A stretch of DNA of 64,000 bases, taken from Heterodontus francisci (Eukaryota). Location: positions 199,259,864 to 199,323,863 of the forward strand of contig NC_090375.1 in the NCBI RefSeq assembly GCF_036365525.1, given 5' to 3'. The position numbers and the translations under genes are program-made. Under the pieces are notes generated by a model that had not been told where the DNA came from, did no database searches, and saw only the letters and a list, made by a program, of their open reading frames with translations. Positions 1 to 64,000 of the stretch are shown piece after piece; within the stretch, counting starts at the first letter, position 1; the number at the start of each line of letters is the position of its first letter.

Positions 1-3000
1 ACGTTCGAAATCTGAGGAAGTTGTAGGAAAAAAACAGTTTGAAACAAAAAATACAACAGTCTGGCAGGGAAAGATTCAGGTATTTCCTTTGGCAAAAGAG
101 CCAATTTAAACTTGCCAGTACACATGGCAATGTTTTGTTCAGTTCTTGTTTAAAAAAGGAGGGGTGACAATGACATTACCTGTCAATCTGAGGGCTTTGG
201 CCCCGCCCTCTTTCAACGCAGCAGAGTATTAACCATTTCTGTTAGCAGCTTAAGGGAAGCACACACTTTTATAGATATTGCGCTTTTAAATTTTTTTAAG
301 TTTTTGAGTTTGGCGATGAGCAGAATGGATCTTTTGTTTTATTTTCCAAGTTACAGGCAGCTCCAAGTGCAACGGAATTTCCAACAGCTTCAAGAATTTC
401 AGGACATTTGTCACAGCATTGTGGCAATTGGGAGACTGGGAACAAGAAATTAGAATTTAAAATTGCATTCATATGAGTTGGTATTTTAAACATTTACAGG
501 GAACAACAAAAGGATATACACGCATAATTTCAGTGTTTTATGGATAAATAAAAAATGTTAATGTTTTCTTTGAACTGAATTAAATAAATTGATTTTAATA
601 TGAAATGATCTGAAGGCGGAAGAACTAGTGTTGAATCAAAAGGAATATCAAGCTAAGTAATGCAAATAGAGAGGAAAAAGAAAAAGAGAAATCGTGACCC
701 CAAAGTTACCAATAATACAGTGAGGGATATGGAGACCGCTAGACTATGAAAGTGTGGGTATGGTTGGTGATATCGGGCGAGACAACAAGACATTTTGTTG
801 GAAGCGATTTCCAGTTCAAGGGGTAGGCACCCATATGTGCCAGGATAAAGATCAGGAACTACGCTGCTCAAGTAGCAGGATGAGCAGCGTGCCGGGCATT
901 TGGGTAAGATTGCCCAGGAAGTCTCAGCCGTTAATCACAGTTGAAGTGTCTCTAACAGAGCCCAGGCACAAAAAATGGTTTAGCATTGATACCTATTGGG
1001 AAAATGTTAGGCCATGAGGTGGCACCGATGATATTGAATTTGACAGAAATAGGGTTGCCCAGGTGATCTGGGAGAAAGAAGCAGAATTTGAATGACAAGT
1101 TATTGGATAATGAGTTGGTACCCAGAGTAAGGACCAGTGGTGACGGATCTCGTCTCTGGAGACAGGTATATTTCCCATTCATACCAAAAGGGGGCCAGCT
1201 GAAGGAGGAGGAGTCAATGTCACAGCCACCGTCTTTAATACTGGGAAGTCGCTGGTGTATAGTTTGGATCTGGCATCTCTGGAAGCAGAGATAAAGGATT
1301 TCAAGGGAAGGCTGAAGGATATTCTTATGAATGAGAATACCAAGCAGGACTCACAGCTGAGGAAAGATCATAGTATGGCAGTTTATTTAAACAATGTATC
1401 AGAGCTATTGGAAGACCAAACTAAAGCTATAAATAAACTCATCCAGGTGGATGGGAACACTTTTGATGAGGCTGCCTGTAATGGTGTGTGAATTATGTAT
1501 GCTTACCGGTTGGTGGAACAGGCCAGGGAAAATCTGAGGCAAATTCACATGGGGAAGTGCCCCCTTGGGTCACTCAGGATTATCTGGACACGTTGATGAA
1601 GGATAGAACAACATCCCTGTGTGCCACCTCAGAGGATTGGTGCGGTATACCCAATACACACAGATTGTAAAAGGGGAGATCTCAAAATAATGGGTTTGGT
1701 GATGTACCTTCTGGTAATGCCACACAGTGAAGCACCGCTCCCAGTCTATAGAATTGAGAAAAATGGAGTCATCGAGGGGGATATTCATATTGACGGGAGC
1801 TAGGTTAGAAGGGTGCACTGACAGAAGAGGCAACGTGGTTTGCACATATCAGTTGGAAAAGCATGCCCAGTCAACATGTGGATTTAACCTTACTGAGCTA
1901 AACTGTATCATGGAGGCTGCAAGGACGGATCTGAAGCCTACGCAGGCAGCCTCTGTCAGGGAAGGGAATACTGTGTGACAACTAAGGGAAAGTGGAACAA
2001 GTATGGAAGGAATTTATGGTGCCTGATATCCCAACCTAACTTCTATTTTACTCCTGAAGGGCCTGTCGGGACAGGCAATAGGGAGATTGTAAATATTTAG
2101 ATCCACAACAGTACTGAGCTTAATGTGAGGGATGATTTAAAGGGAACTTTGAGACAATATGTGGAGATGTTCCGGCTTGACACACCCCTGTTACTTAAGC
2201 ATTTGACTAAGTTGCGGGGGGAGATTGATCAGTCACGAAAAGTTTATTAACAAATCCAATGAATGAGCCACCAGATTTTGCAAGAGATTAATGACATTTC
2301 AGTAACATCTTGCTGGGATGAGATATGGAATTGGAGAGGTATTATTGAGATACACTCCTGGATAAGAATTATCTCCTACATGCTCGTCATTGTACAATTG
2401 CTTCTTGTTCTTTATTTGCTGCATGAACTATGTTATTGGCACAAACATAGTACAGTGGAACAGCGGGTGAAAATGTTACTGGAGGGACAGAATAAGGTGA
2501 ATGGATTAGTTTCGGAAGTGTCGAAATATTCACAGATGGAATTATACACTTAAGGGTTGATGCAGTAAGACAATTGAATATGTCTTGTATTTTTGTTATG
2601 TTGTGAGGCATTTGTTCATATATTCTGTATTTCTGTTCAAAAGACAAATGTAACCAGTTGTGGTGTGGGCCAGCATGTGGAGTTCACCAGATGGTGAAGA
2701 CGTGGAGGCAAAGGACTTTGGGGCGAAGGGAGATGAATTCTGACTGAAGACATCATCACTGAGTTTCATATTGGACTTCAAAAAAATAAAAGACAGTGTA
2801 ATGGAACTAGAACCCTTCATATACACACAGACAGTCGAATCAGGATATGTTACTGCTGTGCTAGCCTGTGCTGTTAGAATATCAAATAGTCTGTCTACAA
2901 CCAGACTCAGGGACAATGGCCTTTTGAAATATGTGTGAATGGCTTCCTTCTTGCATTATTAAGATGTAGACATATATGCACCTCAGAACTCCCCCTGCCG

Positions 3001-3408
3001 AGAGCTGGATATGACATGCATAGCCAGGTGGGATCGATACGACATTGAAACTCACATGGATGACCCAATTCAAAACATTACCTTATATGTCAAGGGACCT
3101 GGGTCAGAAAGGGGTGTAAAGCCACAACTCACAAAGATATTGTTGTTGCATTTGGGAAGTGTGACTTGGTCAGTCACAGGAAGACATGCGGGAGACATCA
3201 TTCATTGGACCTGACCACCCAAGAACGAGTTTCTGTATGTGCGCCTACTAAGCAACTGGTGTTGTAAGTATATACTATTGCTTGGTGAGTTAATAAAGGT
3301 GTTTCACATAAAGTGGAAATTGTATCCAAAGCTTGTTTCGTTTGCTTGATACTAAGGATTTGGTCAGGATCTTAGAGGGAAGTGAGACCCCCCTTTTTAA
3401 GTCTTACA
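1..3408 (+). mobile_element. LTR element copy A (3' internal region with decayed env-like gene plus 3' LTR ~2564-3408)
   Basis: LTR ends in GTCTTACA (3401-3408) and starts (a)GTAAGAC after a purine-rich tract; AATAAA near 3292. Paralogous to 23030-26495 and 58864-62254. Confidence 0.85.
700..2553 (+). pseudogene. Frameshifted env/fusion-glycoprotein-like gene of the LTR element
   Basis: Pieces across frames: NVTATVFNTGKSLVYSLDLASLEAEIKDFKGRL (fusion peptide plus heptad), Cys-rich GCTDRRGNVVC..STCGFNLTELNC, then WDEIWNW and a hydrophobic TM IISYMLVIVQLLLVLYLL. The 5' boundary is approximate. Confidence 0.7.
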
Positions 3409-3414
3409 GCTTCT

Positions 3415-3835
3415 AAATCCTCACCTAGCCCTGATGTGAAACTAACTGGCCTGAGTGATTGCTAGGTCTGTCCTTACCCCCTTTCTCAAACAAGGATGTC
3501 ACATTTGCCATGGTGCACTCCTCTGGTACCTCCACCTTATCGAGGGAAGATAGGAAGGTTTTGGCAAGCCCTTCCATTATCTCTACTCCCACTTTCTTTA
3601 CCAACTTGGGATGCAAGCCATCCGGACCAGGTGATTTATCTACCCTAGCGTAGCCAACCATTTTAGCACCTCTCCACTCTCAATGTTTACCCTACGCATT
3701 GCCTTTACTCTCTCTGCTTCTACTGGTATTTTGTCAGGTTCTTCTTCCTTCGCAAACACCAATGCAAAGTGCACATTAAGTATTTGAGCCTTGCCCTTTG
3801 CCTCTAAGCACAATTACTGATATCAGCTTTTAACT
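3415..3835 (-). mobile_element. CR1 LINE ORF2 fragment
   Basis: ORF 3425..3661 has DKSPGPDGLHP...ANVTSLFEKG, a typical CR1 pre-RT motif. Confidence 0.85.
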
Positions 3836-3934
3836 CCAGATTTATTTAATGAACTGAATTTAAATTCTCCAACTTCTGTGGTGGGATTTGAACTCGTATT
3901 TCCAGATCATTAGTCCAGAACTCTGCATTGCTAT

Positions 3935-6655
3935 AACAAAACCAAAATACTGCAGATGGTGGAAATGTGAAATAAAAACAGAAAGTGCTGGAAATACTCA
4001 GCAGGTCTGGCAGCATCTGTGACGTGATAAGCAGAGCTAAAGTTTCAGGTCAGTGACCCTTCATCGGGCTTTGAGCAAGTGAATGGGGGGAGGGGGAAGA
4101 AAATCAAAAGGGAAGGTGTGTGATAGGCAGGAGAGATTAACAACAGAGATGTCACAGAAGAAAAGACAAAGGGAGTCGTGATAGTTGTAGTAAAGACAAA
4201 ATATTAGTCCAGAGAGATTTCTAATGGCAGAAAAAGTAACAGCTACATCCAAATGCAGAAACATGAACACACAAGTTTAAGACAGGCACATGGATAATAA
4301 ATAAAATAAATAATTAAATATTTTTAATAGATTAAAATGGCAGTCATGATCTGATATTGCTGAATTCAGCATTGAGTCCAGAAGGCTGTACAGTGAAAAA
4401 TCGCAAGATTCCCATGATCGCTTCATGGGAACACTGTAGCAGGTCAAGGAGAGGAATGTAGGCATGAGAACAGGGTGGTGAGTTAAAGTTGCAAGCAAAC
4501 AGAAGCCCTGGGTCATGCTTGAGGACGAGCAGAGGTATTCTGCAAAGTGGTCACCCAATCTGGACTTTGTTGAAATGACGTATGGCATTAGAAGAGTCAC
4601 AGATGTCGGTGGGAAGAGACGAGAAAAGGGGGGGAAATAGTGTCAAGATAGGAAGAAACAAGTTCATTGGGGCAGGAAGAGGCTGAAACGATGGGTCTTC
4701 CAGAACAGTCTTGTTTGTGGCTTTTGGGAAGGAGGTAAATGTGGGCTATTCAAGATGGAAAGACAATGAGGTGGGAAACTGTAGAGGGAATTTCTCCAGA
4801 GGTGATGAGGTCGCTGACAGTCCTGGAGACAGTGGATTGATGTTTGGTGGTGGGATCATGGTCCATGGGGAGGTAGGAAGAAGTGTCTGAGAATTGGCAC
4901 TCTGCCTCTGCAAGGTAGAGGTCGGCACACTAGACAACAACGGAACCACCTTTGTAAGCGGGTTTGATGACAATGTCAGGGTGAGACCTGAGAGAATGGA
5001 ATGCAGCAAGTTCAGAGGGAGACACGTTAGAGTGAGTGAGGGGAGCAGAGTAATTAAGACAGCCGATGTCACGCTGTCTCAATGAAAAGACAAAGAGCAG
5101 GTAACAGGCCAGAGGGAGGGATCCACGTGGAGGTAGAGTACAGGGGGAGGGAGAAAGGATCTGCTGATAGATAGACGACTCCTGGCTAAAGAAGTGAGCC
5201 CAGAGGCAAAGCTGATGGAAGAAGAGTTTGGCATCATGCTGAGCCCGAAATTCATTGAGCTGGGCATTAGAGGAGGGTGGTTAATTAAAATGACAAGCAA
5301 CCAGAAGCTCAGGGTCATGCTTGTGGACTGAGTGGAGGAGTTCCACAAAGCAATCATCCAATCTGTGTTTGGTCTCCCCAGTATAGAGGATACCACATTG
5401 TGAGCAGTGAATACAGTATACGAAATGGAAAGAAGTACATGTAAATTGCTGCTTCACCAGGAAGCAATGTTTGGGACATTTGATGGTGAGGAGAAAGGAG
5501 GTGAAAGGACAGGTACTACACCTCTTGTGATTGCATGGGAAGGTGCCGTGGTAAGGAGACAAGGTGTCGGGCGACAGAGGAGTGGACCAGGGTGTTTTGA
5601 AGGGAATAATCCCTTTGCAATGCTGACAGGTGAGGGGAGAGGAAGATGGGTTTGGTGATGGCATCACGATGGAGGTGGTGAAAATGGCGGAGGATGATCC
5701 TTTTGGTATGAAGGCTGGTGGGGTGGAAAGTGAGGAAAAGAAGAACCATGTTGGGGTTCTGGGAGGGAGGAGAAGGGATGAGGGCAGAAGTGCGGGAGAT
5801 GGGTCGGACGGTCAAGGTCCCTGTCAACAACAGTTGGGGCGTGGAGGGAGGGAATCCTCAATTGAGAATAAAGGAAAACATATCAGAGGAACTGTTGTGG
5901 AAGCCAAGTTGATAATGTTTTCCAGTTCGGGGTGAAAGGAGGAAATGACACTGATACAGTTGTCAATATACCAGAAAAAGAGTTGGGGAACAGACCTGAG
6001 TAGGACTGGAACAAGGATTGCTCGACATACCCCACAAAAATACAGGCATAACTAGGTCCAATGTGGGTACCCATAGCAACACCTTCAATTTGGTGGAAGT
6101 GAGTGGAGTTGAAGGCGAAGTTGTTCAATGTGAGAACAAGTTCAGCTAGGTAGAGGAGGGTGATGGTGGACGGGGACTAGTTGGGCCTCGGTTCAAGGAA
6201 GACACCGAGATCTCTCAGAATGTACTGGTGGGGGATGGAAGTATAGAGAGATTGAACGTCCATGGTGAAGCGGAGGCGGTTAGAGCCAGGAAACTGGACA
6301 TTGTTGAAATGACGAAGGGTGTCAGAAGGTTCACAGATGTAGGTGAGAAGAGACTAGACTAGGAGAGACAAAATAGAGTCAAGATAGGAAGAAATACGTT
6401 CAGTGGGGCAGGAACAAGCTGAAATAATGGGTCTACCAGGGCAGTCCTGTTTGTGGATTTTGGGAAGGAGGTAAAGTGGGCTGTTCAAGGTTCTGAGACT
6501 ATGAAGTTGGAAGCTGTAGAGGGAAGATCTCCAGAGGAGATGAGGTCAGTGACAGTCCTGAAAACAGTGGCTTGATGTTGGGTGGTGGGGTCATGGTCCG
6601 GGGTAGGTCAGAAGAATTATCTGAGAGTTGATAGCCTCTGAAATGTAGAGGTTGG
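3935..6655 (-). mobile_element. Rearranged Penelope-like element(s) (RT and GIY-YIG remnants, terminal repeat at ~3935-4300)
   Basis: NNFAFNSTHFHQIEGVAMGTHIGPSYACIFVGY (RT, 5883..6128) and VYCIHCSQCGILYTGETKHRL (GIY-YIG, 5281..5667); homologous to the + strand element at 39.6-44.9 kb. Confidence 0.85.
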
Positions 6656-6737
6656 TATTTATATGTTATGTCTGTTCAGCATTCTTTATCACGTGTTCAT
6701 CATTTTCAAATCACATAACTTTGCGCATTTTTTCTAG

Positions 6738-7030
6738 GTGGGTGTTTTGCCTTGTCTGTAACGCAGACTGCAAAATCAATAACAGGAAGCCCCGGTAAAA
6801 GTGTCAGATTTCAGTGTACGGTAAGCGGAGGGAGCACCGTGATCCATTGGTACCAGCAGAGACCCGGTCAGGCGCTCGCCAGAATCCTCTATTATGACAA
6901 GAGCCTCACTCGGGATCCAGAATTCAGCTCCAGGTTCAAAGCAGATAAGAATAACAATGTGCACACTTTAATAATCAATAACATCGCGGAAGAATAACTC
7001 TGCCACTTATTACTGTGCCTATTGGGACAG
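6738..7030 (+). pseudogene. TRGV: TCR gamma V pseudogene V-a (exon 2 only; stop plus 1-nt insertion in FR3; leader missing)
   Basis: Acceptor tttctag|GT at 6737/6738, then GCFALSVTQ...VRFQC..VIHWYQQRPGQ..RILYY..RFKA. TAAC stands where a single Asp codon is expected (stop 6995-6997); SATYYCAYWD follows in the shifted frame. Confidence 0.9.
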
Positions 7031-7069
7031 CACAGTGCTGAACAGAGACAGAAACCCTTTACAAAAACC
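7031..7069 (+). promoter_or_regulatory. 23-RSS of V-a (perfect consensus)
   Basis: CACAGTG (7031-7037) + 23 nt + ACAAAAACC (7061-7069). Confidence 0.97.
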
Positions 7070-13514: not shown

Positions 13515-13962
13515 ATGAAGGGTCAAGTCATTGTGATTTTACTCATCACCTTCCTCGGTCAGTATTTTAGGTTCTAACTGATTATTTTTATTCATCCCTC
13601 CCCTCCGCTTTGTGAAATATTCTAATTGATTTCTATTCTTCTCTCTTGCAGGGAAATCTGTTGCTCAAACCTTGACACTGTCCCCATTTTCGATGACCAG
13701 AGCTCCGACGAAAACTGTACGGTTTTACTGCACGGTTGAAGGGACAAATTTCGAAGATCCCGTTATCCACTGGTACCGGCAGACCCCGGGTCAAGGGCTG
13801 CAACGCATGTTATATTTTAAGAATCCATCCGAGACTATGCAGGATATGACCGATAAAGATTTTTTTTTTGCTGAAACAGAATGTAGAACCAAATCCTGTA
13901 CTCTGCTCATGAGGAATAGCCAGGTGGATGACGCTGGGACTTATTACTGTGCCTGCTGGGAC
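13515..13962 (+). CDS. TRGV: TCR gamma V gene V-b (leader 13515-13557, intron, V exon 13652-13962), open frame
   Basis: MKGQVIVILLITFL-G|GTCAGT...TTGCAG|GG-KSVAQTLTLSPFSMTRAPTKTVRFYC..VIHWYRQTPGQ..DDAGTYYCACWD; C23, W41 and C104 present. Confidence 0.92.
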
Positions 13963-14001
13963 CACAGTGACTGAAAGCGAAGGGAAACCAAGGCAAAAAG
14001 C
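13963..14001 (+). promoter_or_regulatory. 23-RSS of V-b
   Basis: CACAGTG + 23 nt + GCAAAAAGC (variant nonamer). Confidence 0.88.
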
Positions 14002-17045: not shown

Positions 17046-18339
17046 GTCCCCATAACTCCAGGGACTGAAGGGCATGGCGCCGTCTCCAGGAACATGAGGG
17101 ATGGCACTGCAGGATCCCACATGTGCTCTGATTCCCTATGCGTTAGCCAACAACCTTCAATTCCAAGTTTAACCAACATTTATTGTAGGAAAATGCCTCC
17201 AGACTCTTAATAGGAGCATAGTCTGGCAAAGATGGACTAAAAGAAGACATCAGATAAAGTGACCAAATGTTTGACTGAAGAGCTGGGCTTTCTTAAGGAA
17301 GAGTGGTGGAGAGGTGGAGGGTTCTGAAAGGCAATTTTAGAGCATTGGATCCAGATTGCTGAAGGCACGGTCCCCAATGGTGAGGCAAATGCAGAAGGAT
17401 CCGGAATATTCAGCCGCGGCGACAATTGCTGCCTTCGTTTACCGCGTGGATTGAAATCGCGCTTTCAAAATTAGCGCCAGTAACAGCCACAATATCAGTC
17501 AGTTTTGGCAGACACCTTAATGGTAGGAAATTCCTTCCAGCGCTTTTCTGTCACAATTTAATGGTGTGCAGGAGAACAAAGGGAATGTCAGAATGCACTG
17601 GATGGAGCTCCTGACCTATCAATATTTCAGCCACAAGCCCAAACTCAGGCAATGACTGCGGAATCCGCTCTGCAGAGGGTCGGGGTTAGCAGCGAAGCGG
17701 TTGTGCTGCAAGAGATTTTGCAGCCAACATAGGCAGGACTCTCCGTGTGGTTGTTGAGGTTGCAAGCGGCCTCAGTCACCTTCTCCTCAGATAAGCTATA
17801 CAAAGCAGATGCTACCTGGGAATCTGGATGAGACGGTCACAGTGATCGTTTGCTTTCTTGAACCGCTGCACTGTGTGTTGAAGGTACTCCCACAGTGCTG
17901 TTAAGCAGGGAGTTGCAGGATTTTGACCCAGTGATGTTGTAGGAATGGCCAAGTCAAATGATGTATGGCGTCGTGTTGATGCTGTTCCCTGGCGTTTGCT
18001 GCTCCTGTCCTTCTAGTTAGGGATTTCCTGTTGATTTGATCACCTTGTATACAATGTTCAATGTGCCAGGGAAAGAACGAGCCAACTTGTGCTTTTATAA
18101 ATCCTCTTAAAAAGTGTATGTAATTCAATGCAGATTTTAATTTATATAATAGATAATGAATACATGTTACGTTAGAAGTCTGACTGAAAGGCGTGACTTG
18201 TGTCAGATGCTACAAAAATACCAGTAGAGAGCAGTATTAACAGGAAGTCGAGTCACACGTGGGATGTTGTGTTAGAGTCATTGCCCTATATATTTTATCC
18301 AGATATTAATACAAGTGTCTCACACCTCAGACAGACAAC

Positions 18340-18766
18340 ATGTTGCTCTGTTGGGTTGTTTTCGTGACATTTATTCCACGTAAATAGATCGATTCTTTAA
18401 GTACGTTTTATTTGTTTTCTTCAGACTGTAAAATTATTTGTAATTTGGCGTTTCTTTCCCCACAGATGGATGTTTTGCTCAGGATTTGAAACAGAAAAAA
18501 CTATCAGTGACGGCGAGAACGGGCAAAAGTCCGACAATTACGTGTGAGCTGGGTGAATCAGTCAGTGCTTCCGTTATCCATTGGTACAAACAGGCAGCGG
18601 GACAGCAGCCCGTTCGGATTCTCTACTACGATGGGAGCGTTCGTCGGGATGACGGATTCGATAAAAGGTTTTCAGCAGTGAAGAGCGGAGACAAACAATA
18701 TGTTCTGCTTATTGGCGATGTAAAAGCAGAGGATGCCGCCACCTATTACTGTGCCTATTGGAAACA
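18340..18766 (+). CDS. TRGV: TCR gamma V gene V-c (leader 18340-18379, V exon 18466-18766), open frame
   Basis: MLLCWVVFVTFIP-H-GCFAQDLKQKKLSVTARTGKSPTITC..VIHWYKQ..RILYY..RFSA..EDAATYYCAYWK; GT/AG intron. Confidence 0.94.
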
Positions 18767-18805
18767 CACAGAGCTAAACAGCAATTCAATCCGCTTACAA
18801 AAACC
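18767..18805 (+). promoter_or_regulatory. 23-RSS of V-c
   Basis: CACAGAG + 23 nt + ACAAAAACC. Confidence 0.93.
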
Positions 18806-19484
18806 CTCAACACTGCAATTCAAACATCACCAAAACCACATCCGACTCAACTGAAAACTGCCGAAGTCTTCCTCCTTCAGTTAAAGGTTTACTGCCTCGC
18901 ATATCATAAAAATTACACAAACAGCTACCCTCACCGAGTCGTCCATTCCTTTACCTTTAGATCCGACATGGAACATCAAAGGAGAAGAGGACACAGACAG
19001 TGCAATCGAGTGAAATATCCTGTTGATTCTCTCCCCAGACGGTAGCCAGGCGGTGCCCAGCACGACACTGACCCTGTCTGAGTCTTTCTCACCCATCACC
19101 CCATTGTTTTCCAGCCGCAATTGGTTCTCTGGCCCCAAAACAATCGAACTGGAAATCTTGATCCTCATTTCCAAACCCTCCTCGACCCTACCTCTGCAAC
19201 CTTCCCCACTTTATATCCCGGGCCATGTCATTTGGTCCTCCCACTCTTGCCTCGTGTATCTCTCTGCTCCATCATCTTTTAGCCTTTAAGTCTTCAAGCT
19301 GGGATTCTTTTGTTAAACTCTCGTCTTCCGAACTTTTCTTAGAATCTATCTTTTTGACTCTTTACAAATGAAGCACAACTTCACTTTTCAGCGGTCTCTG
19401 TTCACGCTTCCACTCCTGTTTAACTGTCATTTCTCCTTTACTAGCACATTGGTGCTTTTATAAACTTAAATGTAAGTGATTAAG

Positions 19485-20218
19485 AATATAGGAACATGAA
19501 AAGACCATCCAGCCCCATGAGTTTACTCCACTATTCAATTAGATCATGGTTGATCTATATTTCATAGGAACATGAGAGCAGGAGTAGGCCATTCAGCCCA
19601 TGAAGCCAGCTCCGACATTCAATACGATCGTGGCTGATCAACCACTTCAATACCATTTTTCCCACATCATCCCCATATCGCCTTATATCATCGGTATTTA
19701 GATATCTGCCAGTCTCTGCTTTAAATACACTCAATGACCGGAGCTTCTGCAGCCCTCTTGGGAAGAGAATTCCAAAATTCACAAACCTCTGACTAAAGAA
19801 ATGTCTCCTCATCTCAGTCGTAAGTGGCTTCCACCTTATTTTGAAATTGTGTCACGGGTTCTAGACACCCCAACCAGAGGAAACATCTCATCTGCATCTA
19901 CCTTGTCTATCCCTTTAAGTATTTTGTGGATTTCAGTGAGATCACATCTCATTCCCGAAACTCTAGAGAATACAGGCCCAGTTTCCCCAATTTCTCTTCA
20001 TCGGACAGTCCTGCCATCCCGGGAACAAGCTGGTGAATCTTCGTTGCACTCCCTCTATGACAATAATATCCTTCCAAACGTTAAGGGACCAAAACTGCAC
20101 ACAGTACTCCAGCTACGGTCTAACTAAGGTTCGATACAATAGAAGCAAGACATTGCTACTCCAGTGCTGAAACATCTTGCGATAAAGGTTAACATACCAT
20201 TAGCCTTCCTAATTTCAG
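19485..20218 (-). mobile_element. CR1 LINE 3' fragments
   Basis: MRRHFFSQRFVN..LSVFKAE (19555..19812) and a CR1 3' tail. Confidence 0.8.
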
Positions 20219-28871: not shown

Positions 28872-29311
28872 ATGTCACTGTATTACTGGTTCATTGTGGT
28901 GATCATTTTTCCCTGTATGTGTTTCTGATGCTATTATTCAAATGCTGTTATTCAGTCTGCTCTGTCACGCTGTTTATTTGTAACCGTGTCTATTCTTTTC
29001 TCAGGCGGATGTTTCGCTCAAACCTTGAAACAGATTATCCCATCCGTTAGCAAAGCTGCTGGTAAAACCGCTAGATTCCAATGCGAAATACAAGGTGGCT
29101 CGGTCAGCAGCAGTTATCCCCTTCACTGCTACCAACACAAACCCGGCCAGGCACCCACCAGAATACTCTATTATGGGAGAGGTATATCGCGGGATCCAGG
29201 ATTTGGTGAATTGTTTAAAGCCGGGAAGAGTAAAGACAACGAATTCTACCTCACAATCGACAAAATAAAGACAGAGGACGCGGCCACTTATTACTGCGCG
29301 TACTGGGTGTA
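28872..29311 (+). CDS. TRGV: TCR gamma V gene V-e (leader 28872-28914, V exon 29005-29311), open frame but conserved Trp41 is Cys
   Basis: MSLYYWFIVVIIFP-C-GCFAQTLKQIIPSVSKAAGKTARFQC..PLHCYQHKPGQAPTRILYY..EDAATYYCAYWV. Confidence 0.9.
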
Positions 29312-29350
29312 CACAGTGTGAAACAGAAAGACAAACTCTGTACAAAAGCC
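29312..29350 (+). promoter_or_regulatory. 23-RSS of V-e
   Basis: CACAGTG + 23 nt + ACAAAAGCC. Confidence 0.93.
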
Positions 29351-44930: not shown

Positions 44931-45728
44931 AACAATATCAGTCAGTTCTGGTAGACACTTTGCAGCCAGGAAATTCCTTCCAGCGCTTTTCTTAATGGTG
45001 AGCAGGAGAACTAAGGGAATGTCAGATTGCACTGGGATGGAGCTCCTGACCCATCAATATTTCAGCCACAGGCCCAATCTCAGCTACCTGAGAATCTTGA
45101 TGACACGGTCACAGAGATTATTGGCTTTCTTGAATCGTTGCTGTGTGTGTTGAAGGTACCCCCTCAGTGCTGTCACGCAGGGAGTTCCAGGATTTTGAAT
45201 CAGTGATGTTGAAGGAATGTTCAAGTCCAATCGTCGTGGCTTAGAGGTGATGCTGTTCCCATGCATTTGCTGCCCCTGTCCTTCAAAGTGGAAGTCGCTG
45301 GTTTCGGATTTCCTGTCGTATTGATCACCTTGTATCACAATGTTAAATATGTGAGGGCAAGAACGAACCAAATTTTGCTGTTGTAATGCTGCTAAAACGT
45401 GGTTGTGCAATTCAATTGAGATTTCATTTTACATAATAACTAATAAATACTGACATTAGAAGTCTGAAACACAGACAAGAAATGCTGGAAATATTCAGCA
45501 GGTTCTGGCAGCATCTGTGGAGAGAAGCACATTTCAGGTCAGTGAACCTTCAACAGAATAATGGAAGTCTGACTGAAAGGCGTGACTAGCGTCAAATGCT
45601 ACATATATACCAGGAGAGAGCAGTGCGAACAGGAAGTCGAGTCACACGCGGAATGTTGTGTTAGAGTCATTGCCCTATATATTTTATCTAGATGTTAATA
45701 CAAATGTCTCACACCTCAAACAGGCAAC

Positions 45729-46153
45729 ATGTTGCTGTATTGGGTTGTTTTCGTGATATTTTTTCCACGTAAATGGATTTATTCTTTAACTGCGTTTTAT
45801 TTGTTTTATTCAGACTGTAAAATTATCTGTAATTTGGTGTTTCTTTCCCCACAGATGGATGTTTTGCTCAGGATTTGAAACAGAAACAACTGTCAATCAC
45901 CGTGCGAACGCGGAGAATTCGTACAATTGCGTGTGAGCTGGGTGAATCAGTCAGTGCTTCCGTTATCCATTGGTACAAACAGGCAGCGGGACAGCAGCCC
46001 GTTCGGATTCTCTACTACGATGGGAGCGTTCGTCGGGATGACGGATTCGATACAAGGTTTTCAGCAGAGAAAACTGCAAACAAACGATATGTTCTGCTTA
46101 TTGATGGTGTAAAGGCAGAAGACGCCGCCACCTATTACTGTGCCCATTGGAAA
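45729..46153 (+). CDS. TRGV: TCR gamma V gene V-g (leader 45729-45768, V exon 45855-46153), paralogue of V-c, open frame
   Basis: MLLYWVVFVIFFP-H-GCFAQDLKQKQLSITVRTRRIRTIAC..VIHWYKQ..EDAATYYCAHWK. Confidence 0.93.
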
Positions 46154-46192
46154 CACAGAGTTAAACAGCAATTCAATCCGCTTACAAAAACC
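46154..46192 (+). promoter_or_regulatory. 23-RSS of V-g
   Basis: CACAGAG + 23 nt + ACAAAAACC. Confidence 0.93.
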
Positions 46193-46894
46193 CTCAACAC
46201 TGCAATTCAAACATCACCAAAACCACATCCGATTCAACTAAAAACTGCCGAAATCTTCCTCCTTCAGTTAAAGGTTTACTCTCTCGCACATCATAAAAAT
46301 TACACCAAGTAAACAGCTACCCTCACCGAGTTGTCCATTCCTTTACCTTTAGATCCGACATGGAACATCACAGGAGAAGAGGACACAGAAAGTGCAATCG
46401 GGTGAAATACCCTGTTGATCTTTTCCACAGACGGTAGCCAGGCGGTGCCCAGCACGGCACTGACCCTGTCTGAGTCTTGCTCACCCATTACCCCATTGTT
46501 TTCCAGCCGCAATTGGTTCTCTAACCCCAAACAATCGAACTGGAAATCTTGATCCTCACTTCCAAAGCCTCCTCTACCCTACCTCTGCAACCTTCCCCAC
46601 TTTACATCCCGGGCCCTGTCATTTGGTCATCCTATTCTGGCCTCTTGTACTTCTCTGCTCCATCACCAATCAGCCTCGAAAGTCTACAGGTTGGGATTCT
46701 TTTGCTAAACTCCCCCCTTCCTACTTTTCTCTCCAGCTTTAGAGGTCTCCCCAGAAACTATCTCTTTGACTTTCTAAAAGTAAAGCCTAACTTCCTCACA
46801 TTTCAGCAGTCTCTGTTCACTCTTCCTCTCCTGTTTAACTGTCATATCCCCTTTATTAGCTCCTTGATTTTTTTTAAAATTAAAGGTAAATGAA

Positions 46895-48370
46895 TAGGAA
46901 CATAGGAACATGAGGAGACCATTCAGCCCATGAGTTTACTCCACCATTCAATTAGATCTGTCTGTTCTATATTTCAGCTCCATTTACCTGGCCTTGCTCC
47001 ATATCCCTTGATATGCTTACCCCCCAAAAAATCTATCAACCGTGACCCATAACATTTCAATTGTGCTCCAGCATTCACAGCCTATTGGGGGAGAGAGTTC
47101 CAGATTTCCACAACCATTTGTGTGAAGAGATGCTTCCTGACATCACCCCTGAACGGCCTAGCACTAATTTTAAATTACACCCTTGTTCAGGACTCCCCCA
47201 CAAAAATAAATATTTTCTCTCTATCTACTCTATTGAATCCTTTCCTCATTTAAAAATATTGATTAGAACACTCCTCAATCATCTATACTCAAGAGAATAC
47301 ATGCCAAGGTTATACAATCTGTCCTCATAATTTAACCCATCATTCTGGTAAATGTGCACTGCAACCCCAATGCTGTTTGTGGGGCCATGTTGGCTGCCGT
47401 GTCTTTTTTTTTACATTACCACAGTGGCTACACTTCAGAAGTCTTTCTTTCTTCACTACAAAGGTCAATTTTGAGTATCATTCTTGATTACACTTTGTTC
47501 CTGTTCCCTATCTTTTACTCACATGAACATCAAGATTCCATTAGGCTTCCACAGTTCCTAAAGTCTCGCCATTAAGAAAATATTCTAGTTGCTCTTTCTC
47601 TGCTCTATCATGAATGACCTGATGGTTCCCCATATTGAACTCCATTTGTCACAGAGTTGCCCACTCACTTTATCTGTCTATTTGCATTTGTAATTTGCTG
47701 CTTCCATCTACACAACCTACTGTGTCATCAGAAAACTTGGATATAATAGGCTCCATATTCCATTATCCACTAATATATATGGTTAAAAATATCTGAGGCC
47801 CCAGTGCAGATCCCCAGATAAACAACGGTTGTAAATTCCCTTCAATCAGAGTGCATTCGCGTGGGAGACTTGTTCCTGTTCTCAGTCTCCTAACTCCCAA
47901 CAGATAACCAACCCATGTTACCTTGAGCTTTGATGTTTACTAATAATCTCATGCAATACCTTTTCAAATACCTCTTGGATGTCCATATAAACACCATACA
48001 TAGACACGTCCCTGTCCACCACGTTAGTGATCTCCTCAAAAAGTCAAGTAGAACAGTCAGATGTGACCTAGCCCTCACAAATCCATGCTGAATCTCTGTG
48101 CAGTGCAGTCACTCTGTCCCTACAGACAGACTCCAGCAACCTTCTCACATTCCCTAACACTGGAGAGCTTTGTGGAGATATAACCAACTCTCCTGTAATT
48201 TCCTCATCCATTTTTTTGAAATACCCTGGGTGGAAACCACGAGGGCTTGGAGATTTATTTGTCTTAATTTCCATTATTTCCATGATAACAATTTTTTGCC
48301 AAGCTCCTCAACTTGCGTCATTTTTGAGTTAGTTGGTACCCGTTCATTCATTTGTCTATTGTCTGCTCTT
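46895..48370 (-). mobile_element. Old degraded CR1 fragments
   Basis: CR1 3' tail at ~46900; NKSPSPRGFHP in 48068..48283. Confidence 0.65.
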
Positions 48371-52600: not shown

Positions 52601-55600
52601 TTAACTTTATTTTGCACTATGGCCCCATTTGTTTCTTGCCCTTGTTTTCTCTGCCTTCCACTTTTGCTTCTTACCTTTCTGTTTTTCATTTCTAACCTTG
52701 TTTCCCCCTCCTCTGTCACCCTGCTCAGTTTCCCATACCCCTGCCATTTTAGATTAAACCCTCCCTGACTGCACTTGTAAAAACCCCTCCACTCCCTGAG
52801 GAATTTGGTCCCGGACCTCCCAGATGCAACCCATCCAGCCTGTACTGTTCCCACCTTCCTCAGAACCTGTCCCAATGTCCCAGAAATCTGAATTCCAACC
52901 CCCCCCCCACCCCCCACCCCCGCCACACCATTCCTCCAGTCATGTATTCATCTGATATATCCACTATTTCTGCTCCTGCTAGCACATGGCACTGGTAGTA
53001 ATCCTGAGATTATTACCTTTGAAGTCGTACTTTTTAACTTACATCCTAACTCCCTATATTCAACTTGTAAGACCTCATTTCTTTTTTTTACTTATGTTGT
53101 TGGTACCAATATGTACCATGACAACTGGCTGCTCACCCTCTGCTCTCAGAATTCCCTGCAGCCACTCAGAGTCATCCTTGACCCTAGCACCAAGGAGATA
53201 ACATACCATCCTGGAGTCTCTTTTGTGGCCGCAGAAATGTCTGCCTACTCCCCTTACGATGGAATCCCCTATCACTATAGTCTTGCCACTCTTCTTCCTT
53301 CCCTTCTGTGCAGCAGCGCCACCAATGGTGCCATGAACTTGGCTCTTGTTGCTTTCCCCTGAGCCATCTACCACAACAATATCCAAAGCAGTATATCTGT
53401 TGGAGAGGAGGATAGCTACAGGGGACTCCTGCACTACCTGCCTTCCTCTACTCTGCTTGGTGGTCACACATTCCCATTCTGCCTTTGTAGCATTTGCCTG
53501 TGGTGTGGCCAACTCACTAAACATGATATCCACGTTGATCTCACAATCGCAGATGCGCCACAGTGAATCCACCCACACCTCCAGCTCTGAAATGCGGATT
53601 TTGAGTAGCTGCAGCTGGAGACACGTCCTGCAAGCGTGTTCGCCCTGGACTCTGGAAGTGCCTCTGACTTCCCACATTGCACACGAGGCACACTCCACGC
53701 TGCCAAACTGCCATGCCAAGACTCACCTTAATATAATCCCTTAACAATTAGAGATTATTTACATGCGGGACCTTGATTCCCTAAAAAACACTACTTATTC
53801 TATTAAAAAACCTGTATACCTTACCCTACTCCCAATAGGCTTTATTACCACTAGTAAACTTTACTACTACTAATAAAACCTCACAATTACTGATAAATTA
53901 GCTGAGTTTTGGAAGATAAATGAGAAAAATAACAAAATGCTCTCTAATCAATAACTTACCTGTTTCACGGCGATGGCACCTTTTATCTCTTCTCCGAATG
54001 TGGTGCACTCATCGACTGAGCCCCAGTCACAGCTCTCAGACGGCTCTCCTCTCGCCCTGTTTAGAAGCTTTGGGACCACTCTCCTCTCGTGCTGTTTCGA
54101 AGCTCTGGGACCGCTCTCCTCTCGCGCTGTTTTGAAGTTCTGGGACCGCTCTCCTCTCGTGGTGTTTAGAAGCTCTCGGACCGGAGATCAAAAGAACAAA
54201 GAACAGTACCACACAGGAACAGGCCATTCGGCCCTCTAGGCCTTCGCTAATCATGATGCCTGCATCAACTAAAACCTTCTGCACATCCGGGGTCCGTATC
54301 CCTCTATTCTGATCCATTCCAATGATTTATCAAGATGCCTCTTAAACGTCGCTATCGTACCTGATTCCACTACCTCCCACGGCAGCAAGTTCCAGGCACT
54401 CACCACCCTCTGTGTAAAGAACTTGCCTCGCACATCCCCTCTAAACTTTGCCAATCTCACCTTAAACCTATGTCCCCTAGTAACTGACTCTTCCACCCTG
54501 GGAAAAAACTTCTGACTATCCACTCAGTCCACTCATAACTTTATAAACCTCTATCAGGTTGCCCCTCCACCTCCGTCGTTCCAGTGAAAACAATCCAAGT
54601 CTTTCCAACCTCTCCTCATAGCTAACACCCTCCAGACCAGGCAACATCCTGGTAAACCTCTTCTGTCCCCTCTCCAAAGCCTCCACATCCTTCTGTACAT
54701 CTGCAGCATTGCTTGCCAATTTTTATACTCTATGCCCCGACCAATGAAGGCAAGCATGCCGTGCCTTCTTGACGACTTTATCCACCTGCGTTGCCACTTT
54801 CAGTGATCTGTGGACCTGTACGCCCAGATCTCTCTGCCTGTCAATATTCCTAAGGATTCTGCCATTTACTGTATATTTCCCACCTGTATTAGACCTTCCA
54901 AAATGCATTACCTCACATTTGTCTGAAATAAACTCCATCTGCCATTTCTCCGCCCAAGTCTCCAACTGATCTATATCCTGCTGTACCCTCTGACAATCCC
55001 CATCACTATCCGCAACTGCATCAACCTTTGTATCGCCCGCAAACTTACTAATCAGACCAGTTACATTTTCCTCCAAATCATTTATATATACTACAAACAG
55101 CAAAGGTCCGAGCACTAATCCCTGCGGAACACAACTAGTCACAGCCCTCCATTCAGAAAAGCACCCTTCCACTGCTAACCTCTGTTTTCTATGACCGAGC
55201 CACTTCTGTATCCATCTTGTCAGATCCCGTGTGACTTCACCTTTTGAACCAATCTCCTCACTCTTTTTAAAGCTCTCGGACCGGTCTCTTCTCACGTTGT
55301 TTGGAAGCTCTCGGACCGCTCTACTCTCGCTCTGTTTCAAAGCTCTCGGACCGCTCTCCTCTCACGGTGTCTTGAAGCTCTCGGACCGCTCTCCTCTTGC
55401 TATGTTCTGAAACTCTCACCGCTCTCCTCCTACGCTGTTTTGAAGCACTGGAACCACTCTCCTCTCGTGGTGTTTCAAAGCTCTCGGACCGCTCTCCTCT
55501 CACTCTGTTTTGAAGCACTTTAACACTCTCCTCTCATTTTGTTTTGAAGCACTTTAACACTCTCCTCTCGCTCTGTCTTGAAGCACTTTAACACTCTCCT

Positions 55601-55717
55601 CTCGGTCTGTTTTGAAGCTCTTTAACACTCTCCTCTCGGTCTGTTTTGAAGCTCTTTAACAATCTCCTCTCGCTCTGTTTTGAAGCTCTTTAACACTCTC
55701 CTCTCGCTCTGTTTTGA
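49677..55717 (-). mobile_element. Near full-length CR1 LINE (5' tandem repeats, ORF1 zinc finger plus SGNH/GDSL esterase, decayed ORF2)
   Basis: ORF 53075..53719 has VECASCAMWEV..HACRTC..VIGDSIVR..VMVHIGTNN; ORF 52057..52926 has DIVAITETWL; RT fragments at 49931-51568. Confidence 0.92.
54030..55717 (+). repeat. ~34-35-bp tandem repeat (CTCTCCTCTCGCTCTGTTTTGAAGCACTTTAACA-like) in two blocks split by a CR1 insertion (~54190-55250)
   Basis: Units recur at 34-nt spacing (e.g. TAACACTC at 55521 and 55555); the array sits at the 5' end of the CR1. Confidence 0.9.
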
Positions 55718-56214
55718 AGTGGATGTGAGACAGTTGTGAAAGGATAAGTAACACAGCTAGAGGAAGAGAGAGCGCCAGATCCCCCAGCTGATAAGGAGGA
55801 CTAGGGGATTAGTGATTTCTGGAAAAAGAAAGATAAAAGCAATTGTCGGAAAAAATAATAAAAACAACTAATGTAATTTATTTATTTTCTTGCTTCTGAC
55901 TAAGTTTCAAGTTGTCAAGATGAATGTTGCAAGAATGGAGAATGCAAAGGAAGCTTCCAGTATTAACTTATGTTTGTGATATTTAATGTGTTCTCTGGCA
56001 CTTTGAATTTATAACTCATTGTAAGAATTCATATGGGTGCATTGGGATATGAGACTGTGCATGTGATTATTGAGTGTGCCTCTGTCAATTCAATGTTCTG
56101 TAATGTTAAGTTCTGGATCTATGGGAAGCAATTAGTTTTGGCAGCTTATTGTGTTACTACGTCTCCCAGGTAAAAGATGATGTGCAGTGAAAGGTAAGAA
56201 GTCCTAGTGTTCTG

Positions 56215-58863: not shown

Positions 58864-61800
58864 ACGTTCGAAATCTGAGGATTTTGCAGAAAAAAAACAG
58901 TTTGAAAACAAAAAAAAAACAACAGTCTGGCAGGGAAAGATTCAGGTATTTCCTTTGGCAAAAGACCCAATTTAAACTAGCCAGTACACATGGCAATGCT
59001 TCGTTCAGCTCTTTTTTTAAAAAAGGAGGGGTGACAATGACATCACCTGTCAATCTGAGGGCTTTGGCCCCGCCCTCTTTAACGCAGCAGAGTATTAACC
59101 ATTTCTGTTAGCAGCTTAGGGAAGGACACACTTTTATAGATATTGCGCTTTTAAATTTTTTTAAGTTTTTGAGTTTGGCGATGAGCAGAATGGATCTTTT
59201 GTTTTATTTTCCAAGTTACAGGCAGCTGCAAGTGCAACGGAATTTCCAACAGCTTCAAGAATTTCAGGACATTTGTCACAGCATTGTGGCAATTGGGGGA
59301 CTGGGAACAAGAAATTAGAATTTAAAATTGCATTCATATGGGTTGGTATTTTAAACATTTACAGGAAACAACAGAAGGATGTACTCGCATGATTTCAGTG
59401 TTTTATGTACAAATAAAAATGTTAAAGTTTTATTTGAATTGAATTAAATAAATTGATCTTAGTATAAAGTGATCTGAAGGCGGAAGATCTAGTGTTGAAT
59501 CGAAAGGAATATCAAGCTAAGTAACGCAAATTAGAGAGGAAGAACAAAAAGAGGAAACATGTCAATAATACAGTCAGGGATATGGAGACCGCTAGACTAT
59601 GAAAGTGTGGGTATGGTTGGTGATATCGGGCTGGACAACAAGACATTTTGTTGGAAGCGATTTCCAGTTCAAGGGGTAGGCACCCATATGTACCAGGATA
59701 AAGATCAGGAACTACGCTGCTCAAGTAGCAGGATGAGCAGCGTCTCGGGCATTTGGGTGAGATTGCCCAGGAAGTCTCAGCCGTTAATCACACAGATACT
59801 ACTGTGAAGTGTCTCTAACATACCCCAGGCCCAAAAAATGGTTTAGCATTGATACCTATTGGGAAAATGTTAGGCCATGAGGTACACCATGAGGTGGCAC
59901 GGATGATATTGAATTTGACAGAAATAGGGTTGCCCAGGTGATCTGGGAGAAAGAAGCAGAATCTGTATGCCAAGTTATTGGATAATGAGTTGGTACACAG
60001 AGTAAGGACCAGTGGTGACGGATCTGGTCTCTGGAGACAGATATATTACCCATTCATAACAAAAGGGGGCAAGCTGAAGGAGGAGCAGTCAATGTCACAG
60101 CTCCCGTCTTTAATACTGGGAAGTCGCTGGTGTATAGTTTGGATCTGGCATCTCTGGAAGCAGAGATAAAGGATTTCAAGGGAGGGCTGAAGGATATTCT
60201 TATGAATGAGAATACCAAGCAGGACTCACAGCTGAGGAAAGATCAAAGTATGACAGTTTATTTAAACAATGTATCAGAGCTATTGGAAGACCAAACTAAA
60301 GCTATAAATAAACTCATCCAGGTGGATGGGAACACTTTTGATGAGGCTGCCTGCAATGGTGTGTGAATTATGTATGTTTACCGGTTGGTGGAACAGGCCA
60401 GGGAAAATCTGAGGCAAATTCACATGGGGAAGTGCCCCCTTGGATCACTAAGGATTATCTGGACACGTTGATGAAGGATAGAACAACATCCCTGTGTGCT
60501 ACCTCAGAGGATTGGTGCGGTATACCCAATACACACAGATTGTAAAAGGGGAGATCTCAAAATAATGGGTTTGGTGACGTACCTTCTGCTAATGCCACAC
60601 AGTGAAGCACCACTCCCAGTCTATAGGATTGAGAAAAATGGAGTCATCGAGGGGGATATTCATATTGATGGGAACTAGGTTAGAAGGGTGCACTGACAGA
60701 AGAGGCAACGTGGTTTGCACTTATCAGTTGGAAAAGCATGCCCAGTCAACATGTGGATTCAACCTTACTGAGCTAAACTGTACCATGGAGGTTGCAAGGA
60801 CGGATCTGAAGCCTACGCAGGCAGCCTCTGTCAGGGAAGGGAATACTGTGTGACAACTAAGGGAAAGTGGAACAAGTATGGAAGGAATTTATGGTGCCTG
60901 ATATCCCAACCTACCTACAGGCAATAGGGAGATAGTAAATATTTAGAGCCACAACAGTACTGAGCTTAATGTGAGGGATGATTTAAAGGGAACTTTGAGA
61001 CAATATGTGGAGAAATTCCGGCATGACACACCCCTGTTACTTAAGCATTTGACTAAGTTGCGGGGGGAGATTGATCAGTCACGAAAAGTTTATTAACAAA
61101 TCCGATGAATGAGCCACAAGATTTTGCAAGAGATTAATGACATTTCAGTAACATCTTGGTGGGATGAGATATGGAATTGGAGAGGTATTATTGAGATACA
61201 CTCCTGGATAAGAATTATCTCCTACATGCTCTCCTGCAATTGCTTCTTGTTGTTTATTTGCTGCATGAACTATGTTATTGGCACAAACATAGTACAGTGG
61301 AACAGCGGGTGAAAATGTTACTGGAGGGATGGAATAAGGTGATTGGATTAGTTTTGGAAGTGTAGTAATATTCACAGACGAGATTATACACTTAAAGGTG
61401 GATGCAGTAAGACAATTGAATATGTCTTGTATTTTGTTGTGTTGTGAGGCATTTGTTCTAATATTCTGTATTTCTGTTCATAAGTAAAATGTAACCAGTT
61501 GTGGTGTGGGCCAGCATGTGGAGTTCACCAGATGGTGAAGACGTGGAGGCAAAGGACATTGGGGCGAAGGGAGATGAATTCTGACTGAAGACATCATCAA
61601 TGGGTTTCATATTGGACTTCTAAAAAATAAAAGACAGTGTAATGGAACTAGAACCCTTCATATACACACAGACAGTCGAATCAGGACACGTTACTGCTGT
61701 GCTAGCCTGTGCTGTTAGAATATCAAATAGTCTGTCTCCAACCAGACTCGGGGACAATGGCCTTTTGAAATATGTGTGAATGGTTTCCTTCTTGCATTAT

Positions 61801-64000
61801 TAAGATGTAGACATATATGCACCTCAGAACTCCCCCTGCCGAGAGCAGGATATGACATGCATAGCCAGGGTGGGATCGATAAGGCATTGAAACTCACATG
61901 GATGACCCAATTCAAAACATTACCTTATATGTCAAGGGACCTGGGTCAGAAAGGGGCATAAAGCCACAACTCACAAGGATATTGTTGTTGCATTTGGGAA
62001 GTGTGACATGGTCAGTCACAGGAAGACATGCGGGAGACATCATTCATTGGACCTGACCACCCAAGAACGAGTTTCTGTATGTGCGCCTACTAAGCAACTG
62101 GTGTTGTAAGTATATACTATTGCTTGGTGAGTTAATAAAGGTGTTTCACATAAAGTGGAAATAGTATCCAAAGCTTGTTTCGTGTGCTTGATACTAAGGA
62201 TTTGGTCAGGATCTTAGAGGGAAGTGAGACCCCCCCCCCTTTTTAAGTCTTACAGCTTCTCACCAAGCCCTGATGTGAAACTAACTGGCCTGAGTGATTG
62301 CTAGGTCTGTCCTTACCCCCTTTCTCAAACAAGGATGTCACATTTGCCATGGTGCACTCCTCTGGTACCTCCACCTTATCGAGGGAAGATAGGAAGGTTT
62401 TGGCAAGCCCTTCCATTATCTCTACTCCCACTTTCTTTACCAACTTGGGATGCAAGCCATCCGGACCAGGTGATTTATCTACCCTAGCGTAGCCAACCAT
62501 TTTAGCACCTCTCCACTCTCAATGTTTACCCTACGCATTGCCTTTACTCTCTCTGCTTCTACTGGTATTTTGTCAGGTTCCTCTTCCTTCGCAAACACCA
62601 ATACAAAGTACACATTAAGTATTCTAGCCTTGCCCTTTGCCTCCAAGCACAATTACTGATATTAGCTTTTAACTCCAGATTTATTTAATGAACTGAATTT
62701 AAATTCTCCAGCTTCTGTGGTGGGATTTGAACTCGTATTTCCAGATCATTAGTCCAGAACTCTGCATTGCTATAACAAAACCAAAATACTGCAGATGGTG
62801 GAAATGTGAAATAAAAACAGAAAGTGCTGGAAATACTCAGCAGGTCTGGCAGCATCTGTGACGTGAGAAGCGGAGCTAAAGTTTCAGGTCAGTGACACTT
62901 CATTGGGCTTTGAGCAAGTGAAAGGGGGGAGGGGGAAGAAAATCAAAAGGCGTGTGATAGGGCAGGAGAGATTAACAACAGAGATGTCACAGAACAAAAG
63001 ACAAAGGGAGTCGTTATAGTTGTAGGAAAGACAAAATATTAGTCCAGAGAGATTGCGAATGGCAGAAAAATTAACAGTTCCATCCAAATGCAGAAACATG
63101 AACACACAAGTTTAAGACAGGCACATGGATAATAAATAAAATAAATAATTAAATATTTTTAATGGATTAAAATGGCAGTCATGATCTGATATTGCTGAAT
63201 TCAGCATTGAGTCCAGAAGGCTGTACAGTGAAAAATCGCAAGATTCCCATGATCGCTTCATGGGAACACTGCAGCAGGTCAAGGAGAGGAATGTAGGCAT
63301 GAGAACAGGGTGGTGAGTTAAAGTTGCAAGCGAACAGAAGCCCTGGGTCATGCTTGAGGACGAGCAGAGGTATTCTGCAAAGTGGTCACCCAATCTGGAC
63401 TTTGTTGAAATGACGTAGGGCATCAGAGGTGTCACAGATGTCGGTGGGAAGAGACTAGCAAAGGGGGGAAAATAGTGTCAAAATAGGATGAAACAAGTTC
63501 ATTGGGGCAGGAAGAGGCTGAAACGATGGGTCTTTCAGAACAGTCTTGTTTGTGGCTTTTGGGCAGGAGGTAAATGTGGGCTATTCAAGATGGAAGGGCA
63601 ATGAGGTGGGAAGCTGTAGAGGGAAGATCTCCAGAGGTGATGAGGTTGCCGACAGTCCTGGAGACAGTGGATTGATGTTTGGTGGTGGGATCATGGTCCA
63701 TGGGGAAGTAGGAAGAAGTGTCTGAGAATTGGCACTCTGCCTCTGCTAGGTAGGTGTCGGCACACTAGATAACAACGGAACCACCTTTGTAAGCGCGTTT
63801 GATGACAATATCAGGGTGAGACCTGAGAGAATGGAGTGCAGCAGGTTCAGAGGGAGACAGGTTAGAGTGAGTGAGGGGAGCAGAGTCATTAAGACAGCCG
63901 ATGTCACGCTGTCTCAATGAAAAGATAAAGAGCAGGTAACAGGCCAGAGGGAGGGATCCATGTGGACCCGGTCAGGCGCTCGCCAGAATCCTCGATTATG
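58864..64000 (+). repeat. Segmental duplicate of window positions 1-5131 plus 6863 onward
   Basis: ACGTTCGAAATCTGAGGA at 1 and 58864; same order of env, LTR, CR1 and Penelope; near-identical translated ORFs (e.g. 296..493 vs 59161..59358). Confidence 0.97.
63965..64000 (+). pseudogene. TRGV: Fragment of a second V-a copy (FR2 onward), fused to Penelope sequence; runs off the window
   Basis: GACCCGGTCAGGCGCTCGCCAGAATCCTC-ATTATG matches 6861-6896 with one mismatch. Confidence 0.9.

Follow-up and report, generated by a model that had tools for sequence, protein, structure and literature searches.

The TCR-gamma locus

The window analysed here is a stretch of 64,000 nucleotides from Heterodontus francisci (NC_090375.1, positions 199,259,864 to 199,323,863). 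It is part of a shark TCR-gamma (TRG) translocon. The 400 kb examined around the window hold at least 43 V-like segments, at least four J segments and one C region; the V and J counts are lower bounds. The J segments, with FGxG motif and 12-bp recombination signal (RSS), are located at 199.489-199.491 Mb of contig G000:C5. Compared with P0002, a V-J-C chain that carries a white shark label and a lambda-like source name, identity is 53% for the downstream C exon and 65% for the TM exon. The V array spans about 410 kb and was amplified as multi-V cassettes. Our own grouping of the segment list gave seven V families with 13 (A), 7 (B), 8 (C), 8 (D), 4 (E), 2 (F) and 1 (G) members.

Both V-c and V-g (family members A7 and A8) show the features of TRG V genes: a V-set domain with conserved Cys, Trp and YYC, a leader exon and an RSS with 23-bp spacer (Table 1). 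The splice joint 18379>18466 (GT..AG, 86-base intron) is covered at family level by contigs from three of four runs (X5, X6 and X8), taken as RNA by guess, with no matching run on record as RNA. These spliced contigs resemble copies A13 and A2, not V-c. The deepest FR1 contig of run X5 equals A13, the family-A copy nearest to the J segments, and the second resembles A2; depth cannot rank expression. Copy A1 is carried letter for letter by P0001 (labelled Heterodontus francisci). Among solved structures, the 5'-most V of the locus matched Vgamma9 chains with 61 bits, best among single-domain alignments, and the best sequence and fold matches of V-c were antibody chains in a set dominated by multi-domain antibodies. 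A near-length protein search gave no match.

The window also holds a frameshifted family-D V copy (about 6730-7069), a family-B V copy with a weak nonamer (about 13660-14001) and a family-C V copy that has Cys in place of the conserved Trp (about 29010-29350). Positions 1-5131 and 58864-63966 match with 95-96% identity; a tandem duplication of about 57-59 kb begins there. Self-comparison revealed degenerate tandem repeats at 54027-54183 and 55253-55719.

Table 1. Features of V-c and V-g in the window. Positions count from the first base of the window; pi, mean pairwise diversity in family A.
Feature	Position	Strand	Evidence and remarks
Collinear duplicated block around V-c	18175..19564	+	Partner 45564-46976, 87.6% identity, about 1.4 kb
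V-c (A7) leader exon	18340..18379	+	ATG...GT donor; splice joint at family level
V-c V exon, intact TCR-gamma V domain	18466..18766	+	Pfam V-set E 1.8e-12; open frame with Cys, Trp, YYC
V-c variable patch 1 (FR1, A'-B turn, B strand)	18498..18540	+	pi 0.217; equivalents of Vgamma9 K13, S16, K17, T18, R20
V-c 123-bp tract (Cys23, CDR1, FR2, CDR2, C'')	18541..18663	+	pi 0.034
V-c variable patch 2 (FR3: D strand, DE/HV4 loop, E strand, EF turn)	18664..18731	+	pi 0.168; Vgamma9 E70 equivalent invariant, H85 equivalent variable
V-c RSS, 23-bp spacer	18767..18805	+	
V-g (A8) leader exon	45729..45768	+	
V-g V exon, intact TCR-gamma V domain	45855..46153	+	Pfam V-set E 2.7e-10
V-g variable patch 1	45887..45929	+	
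V-g copy of the 123-bp tract	45930..46052	+	Exact match to V-c
V-g variable patch 2	46053..46120	+	
V-g RSS, 23-bp spacer	46154..46192	+	

Conserved core and variable framework patches in family A

V-c and V-g are identical over 123/123 bases, and the identity cannot be extended on either side. The flanks differ by 14 substitutions in patch 1 and 15 in 18664-18756. The original prediction labelled the tract CDR1-FR2-CDR2. These regions are covered, and the actual tract is slightly wider: it begins at base 2 of the codon preceding Cys23 and runs into the C'' strand. The inverted pattern noted for the pair, conserved CDRs between variable frameworks, is significant in the family as a whole: in a scan with permuted codons, the 123-base low has p=5e-5 and the 45-base high p=0.003.

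In a genome search, the V-c family came out at 13 members with 90-95% identity. Twelve are intact; A9 (L002), a duplicate of V-c, is interrupted by a stop codon downstream of the conserved Trp and lacks one codon. Mean pairwise diversity of the 13 copies is 0.069 upstream, 0.217 in patch 1, 0.034 in the tract, 0.168 in patch 2 and 0.057 downstream, with patch boundaries picked from the data themselves. Per position, the 12 intact genes have 0.12 extra amino-acid alleles in CDR1, 0.06 in FR2 and 0.50 in CDR2, and 1.04 in FR1, 1.46 in D-DE-E and 1.44 in EF. Families C and D, which were copied along with family A in its cassettes, have a diversity of 0.00-0.06 in the same exon bins and no patch peaks. 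Family B (window about 13660-13962 and paralogues) has a smaller rise of 0.09-0.14 over C''-D, with indels.

Expected allele numbers were derived from the non-coding allele density. The tract has 9 replacement alleles versus 25 expected, the patches 61 versus 23.5. The suggestion that selection fixes CDR1 and CDR2 while FR1 and the DE loop diverge is supported at family level. Silent alleles are also unevenly distributed, with 19 versus 9.5 expected in the patches (p=0.004) and 5 versus 9.5 in the tract (p=0.09). The latter may reflect some homogenising of the core. Synonymous diversity is likewise raised in the patches (0.17-0.20), and the within-patch dN/dS is about 1 (0.8-1.2).

The orthologue P0002 differs from V-c at 8/40 tract and 19/38 patch positions, and P0009 at 12/40 and 19/38. 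A spliced contig of run X8 (organism B, depth 3.7) equals V-c over 18541-18597, the 57 tract bases it covers; all of its 11 V-exon differences from V-c fall in the FR1 patch.

The side face of the V domain

In human Vgamma9, the ABED face is contacted by BTN2A1 via K13, S16, K17, T18, R20, E70 and H85, as described in the cited preprint text (bioRxiv 10.1101/2023.08.30.555639). In the predicted V-c model (pLDDT 82.5), strand B comprises residues 19-23, strand D 64-70 and strand E 73-78; residues 1-20 have a pLDDT of 64-68 because the J strand is absent from the model. According to prediction, the two patches make up the outer ABED side face, with side-chain orientation taken from the alignment and the strand pattern. 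The equivalents of the Vgamma9 footprint in V-c are A12, G15, K16, S17, T19, S65 and G79, mapped by range offsets, where the two C-terminal positions assume that a single gap precedes them. Six of these seven positions vary in family A, with 14 extra alleles (random-position p=0.003; 3/95 register shifts are as high). The E70 equivalent is invariant.

The basic residues of the footprint are distributed differently. None of the 12 family-A genes has K/R at 13 or 20, so the complete Vgamma9-type set of basic residues (13, 17, 20) is missing from this family. In the other six families, K/R is present at both positions in all 12 genes sampled. The loss of these residues from family A and the invariant E70 equivalent count against the side-face reading. 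In the range match of the 5'-most V to 1hxm_B (2-95 to 6-100), Vgamma9 K13, K17, T18 and R20 fall on identical shark residues; this gene (L016:3859-4146; G000:C5 about 199063860-199064149) has exactly K13, K17, T18 and R20. The K13/R20-type basic motif of six of the seven families is possibly an ancient side-face motif.

Probable selection and gene conversion

The preferred explanation, which we consider probable, is that purifying selection holds the core of family A, and that selection favouring diversity drives the side-face patches. The case for positive selection rests on family specificity, an excess of replacements in sister pairs and the shape of the diversity profile. In four intact sister pairs, dated by the divergence of their multi-kb cassettes, patch replacements number 35 versus 17.7 expected (p=2e-4), patch silent changes 11 versus 7.1 (p=0.11) and tract replacements 10 versus 19 (p=0.02). 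The pair A3/A5 has no replacement excess, and the excess may partly have been imported by conversion. The divergence profile appears to fit the peak-of-divergence signature of selection acting against homogenising conversion (PMC3924837).

Codon site models gave a mixed result. M2a was favoured over M1a with an LRT of 23.0 on one tree and 18.9 with two partitions. When each of four partitions had a separate tree and rate, the LRT dropped to 1.7 (p=0.43) and the omega>1 signal was gone. In mosaic simulations without omega>1, the LRTs were often inflated, but 0/42 reached the observed 25.1; the maximum was 23.9, and 4/42 were above 20. In families B, C and D, from which broken and gapped genes were dropped, leaving low power, the codon tests were not significant (C, p=0.17, 7/8 genes; D, 0.83, 5/8; B, 0.86, 4/7).

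Family A is a mosaic (PHI p 1e-4 to 3e-4). Nearest relatives switch between segments: A1 has the D/DE segment of V-c and the E/EF segment of A4 and A10. The trees of the tract and of the downstream part are poorly supported. The PHI result and the patchwork indicate that exchange shuffles patches, and conversion in family A shows mainly as this shuffling. A contig of DNA run X4 at 18639-18836 combines a V-c/A1-type D/DE with an A4-type E/EF segment and equals no assembled copy; it is possibly an allele or a further recombinant.

The patches could also have diverged with no positive selection. They would then be unconstrained, escape homogenising conversion or come from older lineages, and show the true age of the duplications; conversion and purifying selection would flatten the core and the proximal flanks. 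Such neutral divergence agrees with a patch dN near dS, with the raised silent sites, with the loss of omega>1 once segments have their own trees and rates, and with older cassette duplications, which are 10-16% diverged and thus near the patch values. It gives no reason, however, why conversion without selection should skip two patches as short as 43 and 68 bp when the sequence around them is homogenised. Families C and D are constrained at the same positions, even young sister pairs carry the replacement excess, and the patches overlap a known ligand footprint. We regard this explanation as unlikely, although it deserves serious consideration.

The original prediction had offered a recent germline conversion that copied CDR1-FR2-CDR2 between V-c and V-g; A12 may be included, as it is identical over the tract too. 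At the 8.1% flank divergence of the pair, zero differences in 123 bases have a probability of 3e-5, and V-c and A12 share 144 bp (p=0.009, uncorrected). Conversion is also active in family A. Scaled to the tract diversity of the family, the probability per pair is 0.007, which corresponds to about half an identical pair expected among 78; 3/78 are observed, all within the trio V-c, V-g and A12. A GENECONV-like permutation on 226 polymorphic sites gave p=0.053 for the V-c/V-g run, uncorrected for 78 pairs. The run ranks joint fourth among the longest identical runs of the 78 pairs, and three other pairs have longer ones. The two tracts equal the family majority sequence except for G18637, which is common to 6/13 copies, and the pair has no derived allele of its own. 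Agreement with the majority at all but this N/S site is seen in 3/13 genes versus 1.8 expected (P(0)=0.135). As the tract is conserved family-wide, A12 is identical, private alleles are lacking, the permutation gave 0.053 and the same core occurs in the contig of another organism, a recent conversion specific to the pair is not needed, and we consider it improbable. By itself, the 123-bp identity is ordinary; it is a family-wide property.

Local germline mutation hotspots in the patches, for example through leaky AID activity or tandem mutations in the germ line, are very improbable. They would raise silent and replacement sites alike, as observed. In patch 1, adjacent alleles with the same carriers make up 8/35, versus 12/147 in the non-coding flanks, patch 2 has nine alleles on nine WRC/GYW sites, and shark somatic hypermutation makes tandem changes according to the cited text (PMC5931798). 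Against hotspots, the peaks are family-specific, tandem alleles are 0/47 in patch 2, only two patch 1 alleles lie at WRC/GYW, and the part with the fewest changes is the CpG-rich tract (22 CpG sites). Explanations by AID hotspots and by CpG were judged weak.

Assembly collapse or a polishing artefact can practically be dismissed: V-c and V-g themselves rest on the assembly, and the private FR1 letters of V-c are absent among the listed contigs of X4, which show presence only, but the assembly resolves the tract, in which 10/13 copies have retained variants of their own, X5 contigs equal A13 letter for letter over 18466-18598, and X4 has a zero-difference contig over 18534-18636.

Candidate ligands and proposed mechanism

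Butyrophilin genes occur in cartilaginous fish, as stated in the cited text (PMC12841164). About 20 butyrophilin/MOG-like IgV exons were found at 2.5-12.1 Mb of contig G000:C29 (L056-L112), and four more on C1207. The C29 cluster has matching IgC exons and many PRY exons nearby, known as exons and not as full gene models; the PRY search, taken alone, gave little information. Several of the C29 copies are 98-100% identical. A codon test of the largest butyrophilin-like subfamily (9/11 genes, two identical copies dropped) gave a weak signal with an LRT of 7.7 (p=0.02). Its sites 5, 79, 86 and 111 lie outside the BTN2A1-type contacts, so the test gives no sign of reciprocal diversification, which counts against the preferred explanation. 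The predicted complex of V-c with the butyrophilin-like IgV domain L093 had a score of 0.00 with alignments unused and counts neither way.

Tandem amplification gave the 13 copies of one V family. Under the proposed mechanism, exchange between paralogues would keep flanks and core alike and recombine the patch variants. Purifying selection would hold the delta-pairing face and CDR1/2; diversifying selection would keep and add differences on the ABED side face, at a germline-encoded ligand site. Since selection would act at a side-face site read in the germline, the choice of V would set the ligand specificity, and CDR diversity would be left to the junctions and somatic hypermutation. The leading candidate ligand is a butyrophilin-like protein, and a microbial superantigen-like binder is the alternative. 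Tentatively, family A may reverse the usual receptor design, with nearly fixed CDR1/2 and a conversion-shuffled ABED face that reads an expanded butyrophilin-like set or evades a microbial binder; from K13/K17/R20 in the other six families, recognition of butyrophilins by the side face would then be as old as the jawed vertebrates. This extension is possible, though on balance doubtful.

Comparison with known systems

The type of locus, conversion among V genes and ligand binding at the side face are already known. For the sandbar shark, a TRG translocon with five TRGV, three TRGJ and one TRGC is reported (Chen et al. 2009, as cited in the review PMC7349638). As described there, it resembles the H. 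francisci locus in a V array with 23-bp signals, a J cluster and a single C. Unlike it, the present locus has at least 43 V, seven families over about 410 kb, multi-V cassettes and one 13-copy family with inverted variability. The same review text reports somatic hypermutation for shark gamma V.

The human Vgamma9-BTN2A1 system, as far as described in the text cited above, is similar in the use of the germline ABED face as a site apart from the CDRs, and six of its seven contact equivalents would lie in the variable patches. Vgamma9 is a single gene with a fixed footprint, whereas the predicted face of family A varies among copies and is without K13 and R20. Human Vgamma2/3/4 with BTNL3 and mouse Vgamma7 with Btnl1/6 (PMC6868513, PMC7608190) also involve close paralogues, in which a few HV4/FR3 differences decide binding; for human Vgamma2 versus Vgamma4, HV4 differences decide the binding of BTNL3 (PMC6868513). 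In the cited texts, CDR2 contributes and FR1 is not implicated, whereas in family A CDR2 is nearly fixed and FR1 is most variable.

Human red and green opsins (PMC3924837) are, in the cited account, likewise duplicates that exchange sequence, with divergence peaks around putatively selected sites. They are two copies; family A has 13 with shuffled patches. For human TRAV/TRBV, the cited text (PMC13396459) indicates that framework codons can be under diversifying selection. There, this accompanies the diversification of CDRs across whole gene groups, whereas family A is young and its CDR1 almost invariant. A search of a limited literature library found no account of this locus or of its variability pattern. 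Kazen and Adams reportedly described selection and conversion in primate group-1 Vgamma in 2011.

The ligands of gamma-delta receptors, and the age of butyrophilin recognition via germline V surfaces, are still open issues. Where a locus is amplified, differences among germline paralogues, and not somatic hypermutation, may account for framework variation seen in shark gamma cDNAs. The 12 intact genes of family A are natural variants that differ in the side face but hardly in CDR1/2, and the same genome has about 20 candidate butyrophilin-like IgV domains, so that the matching of ligands is directly testable.
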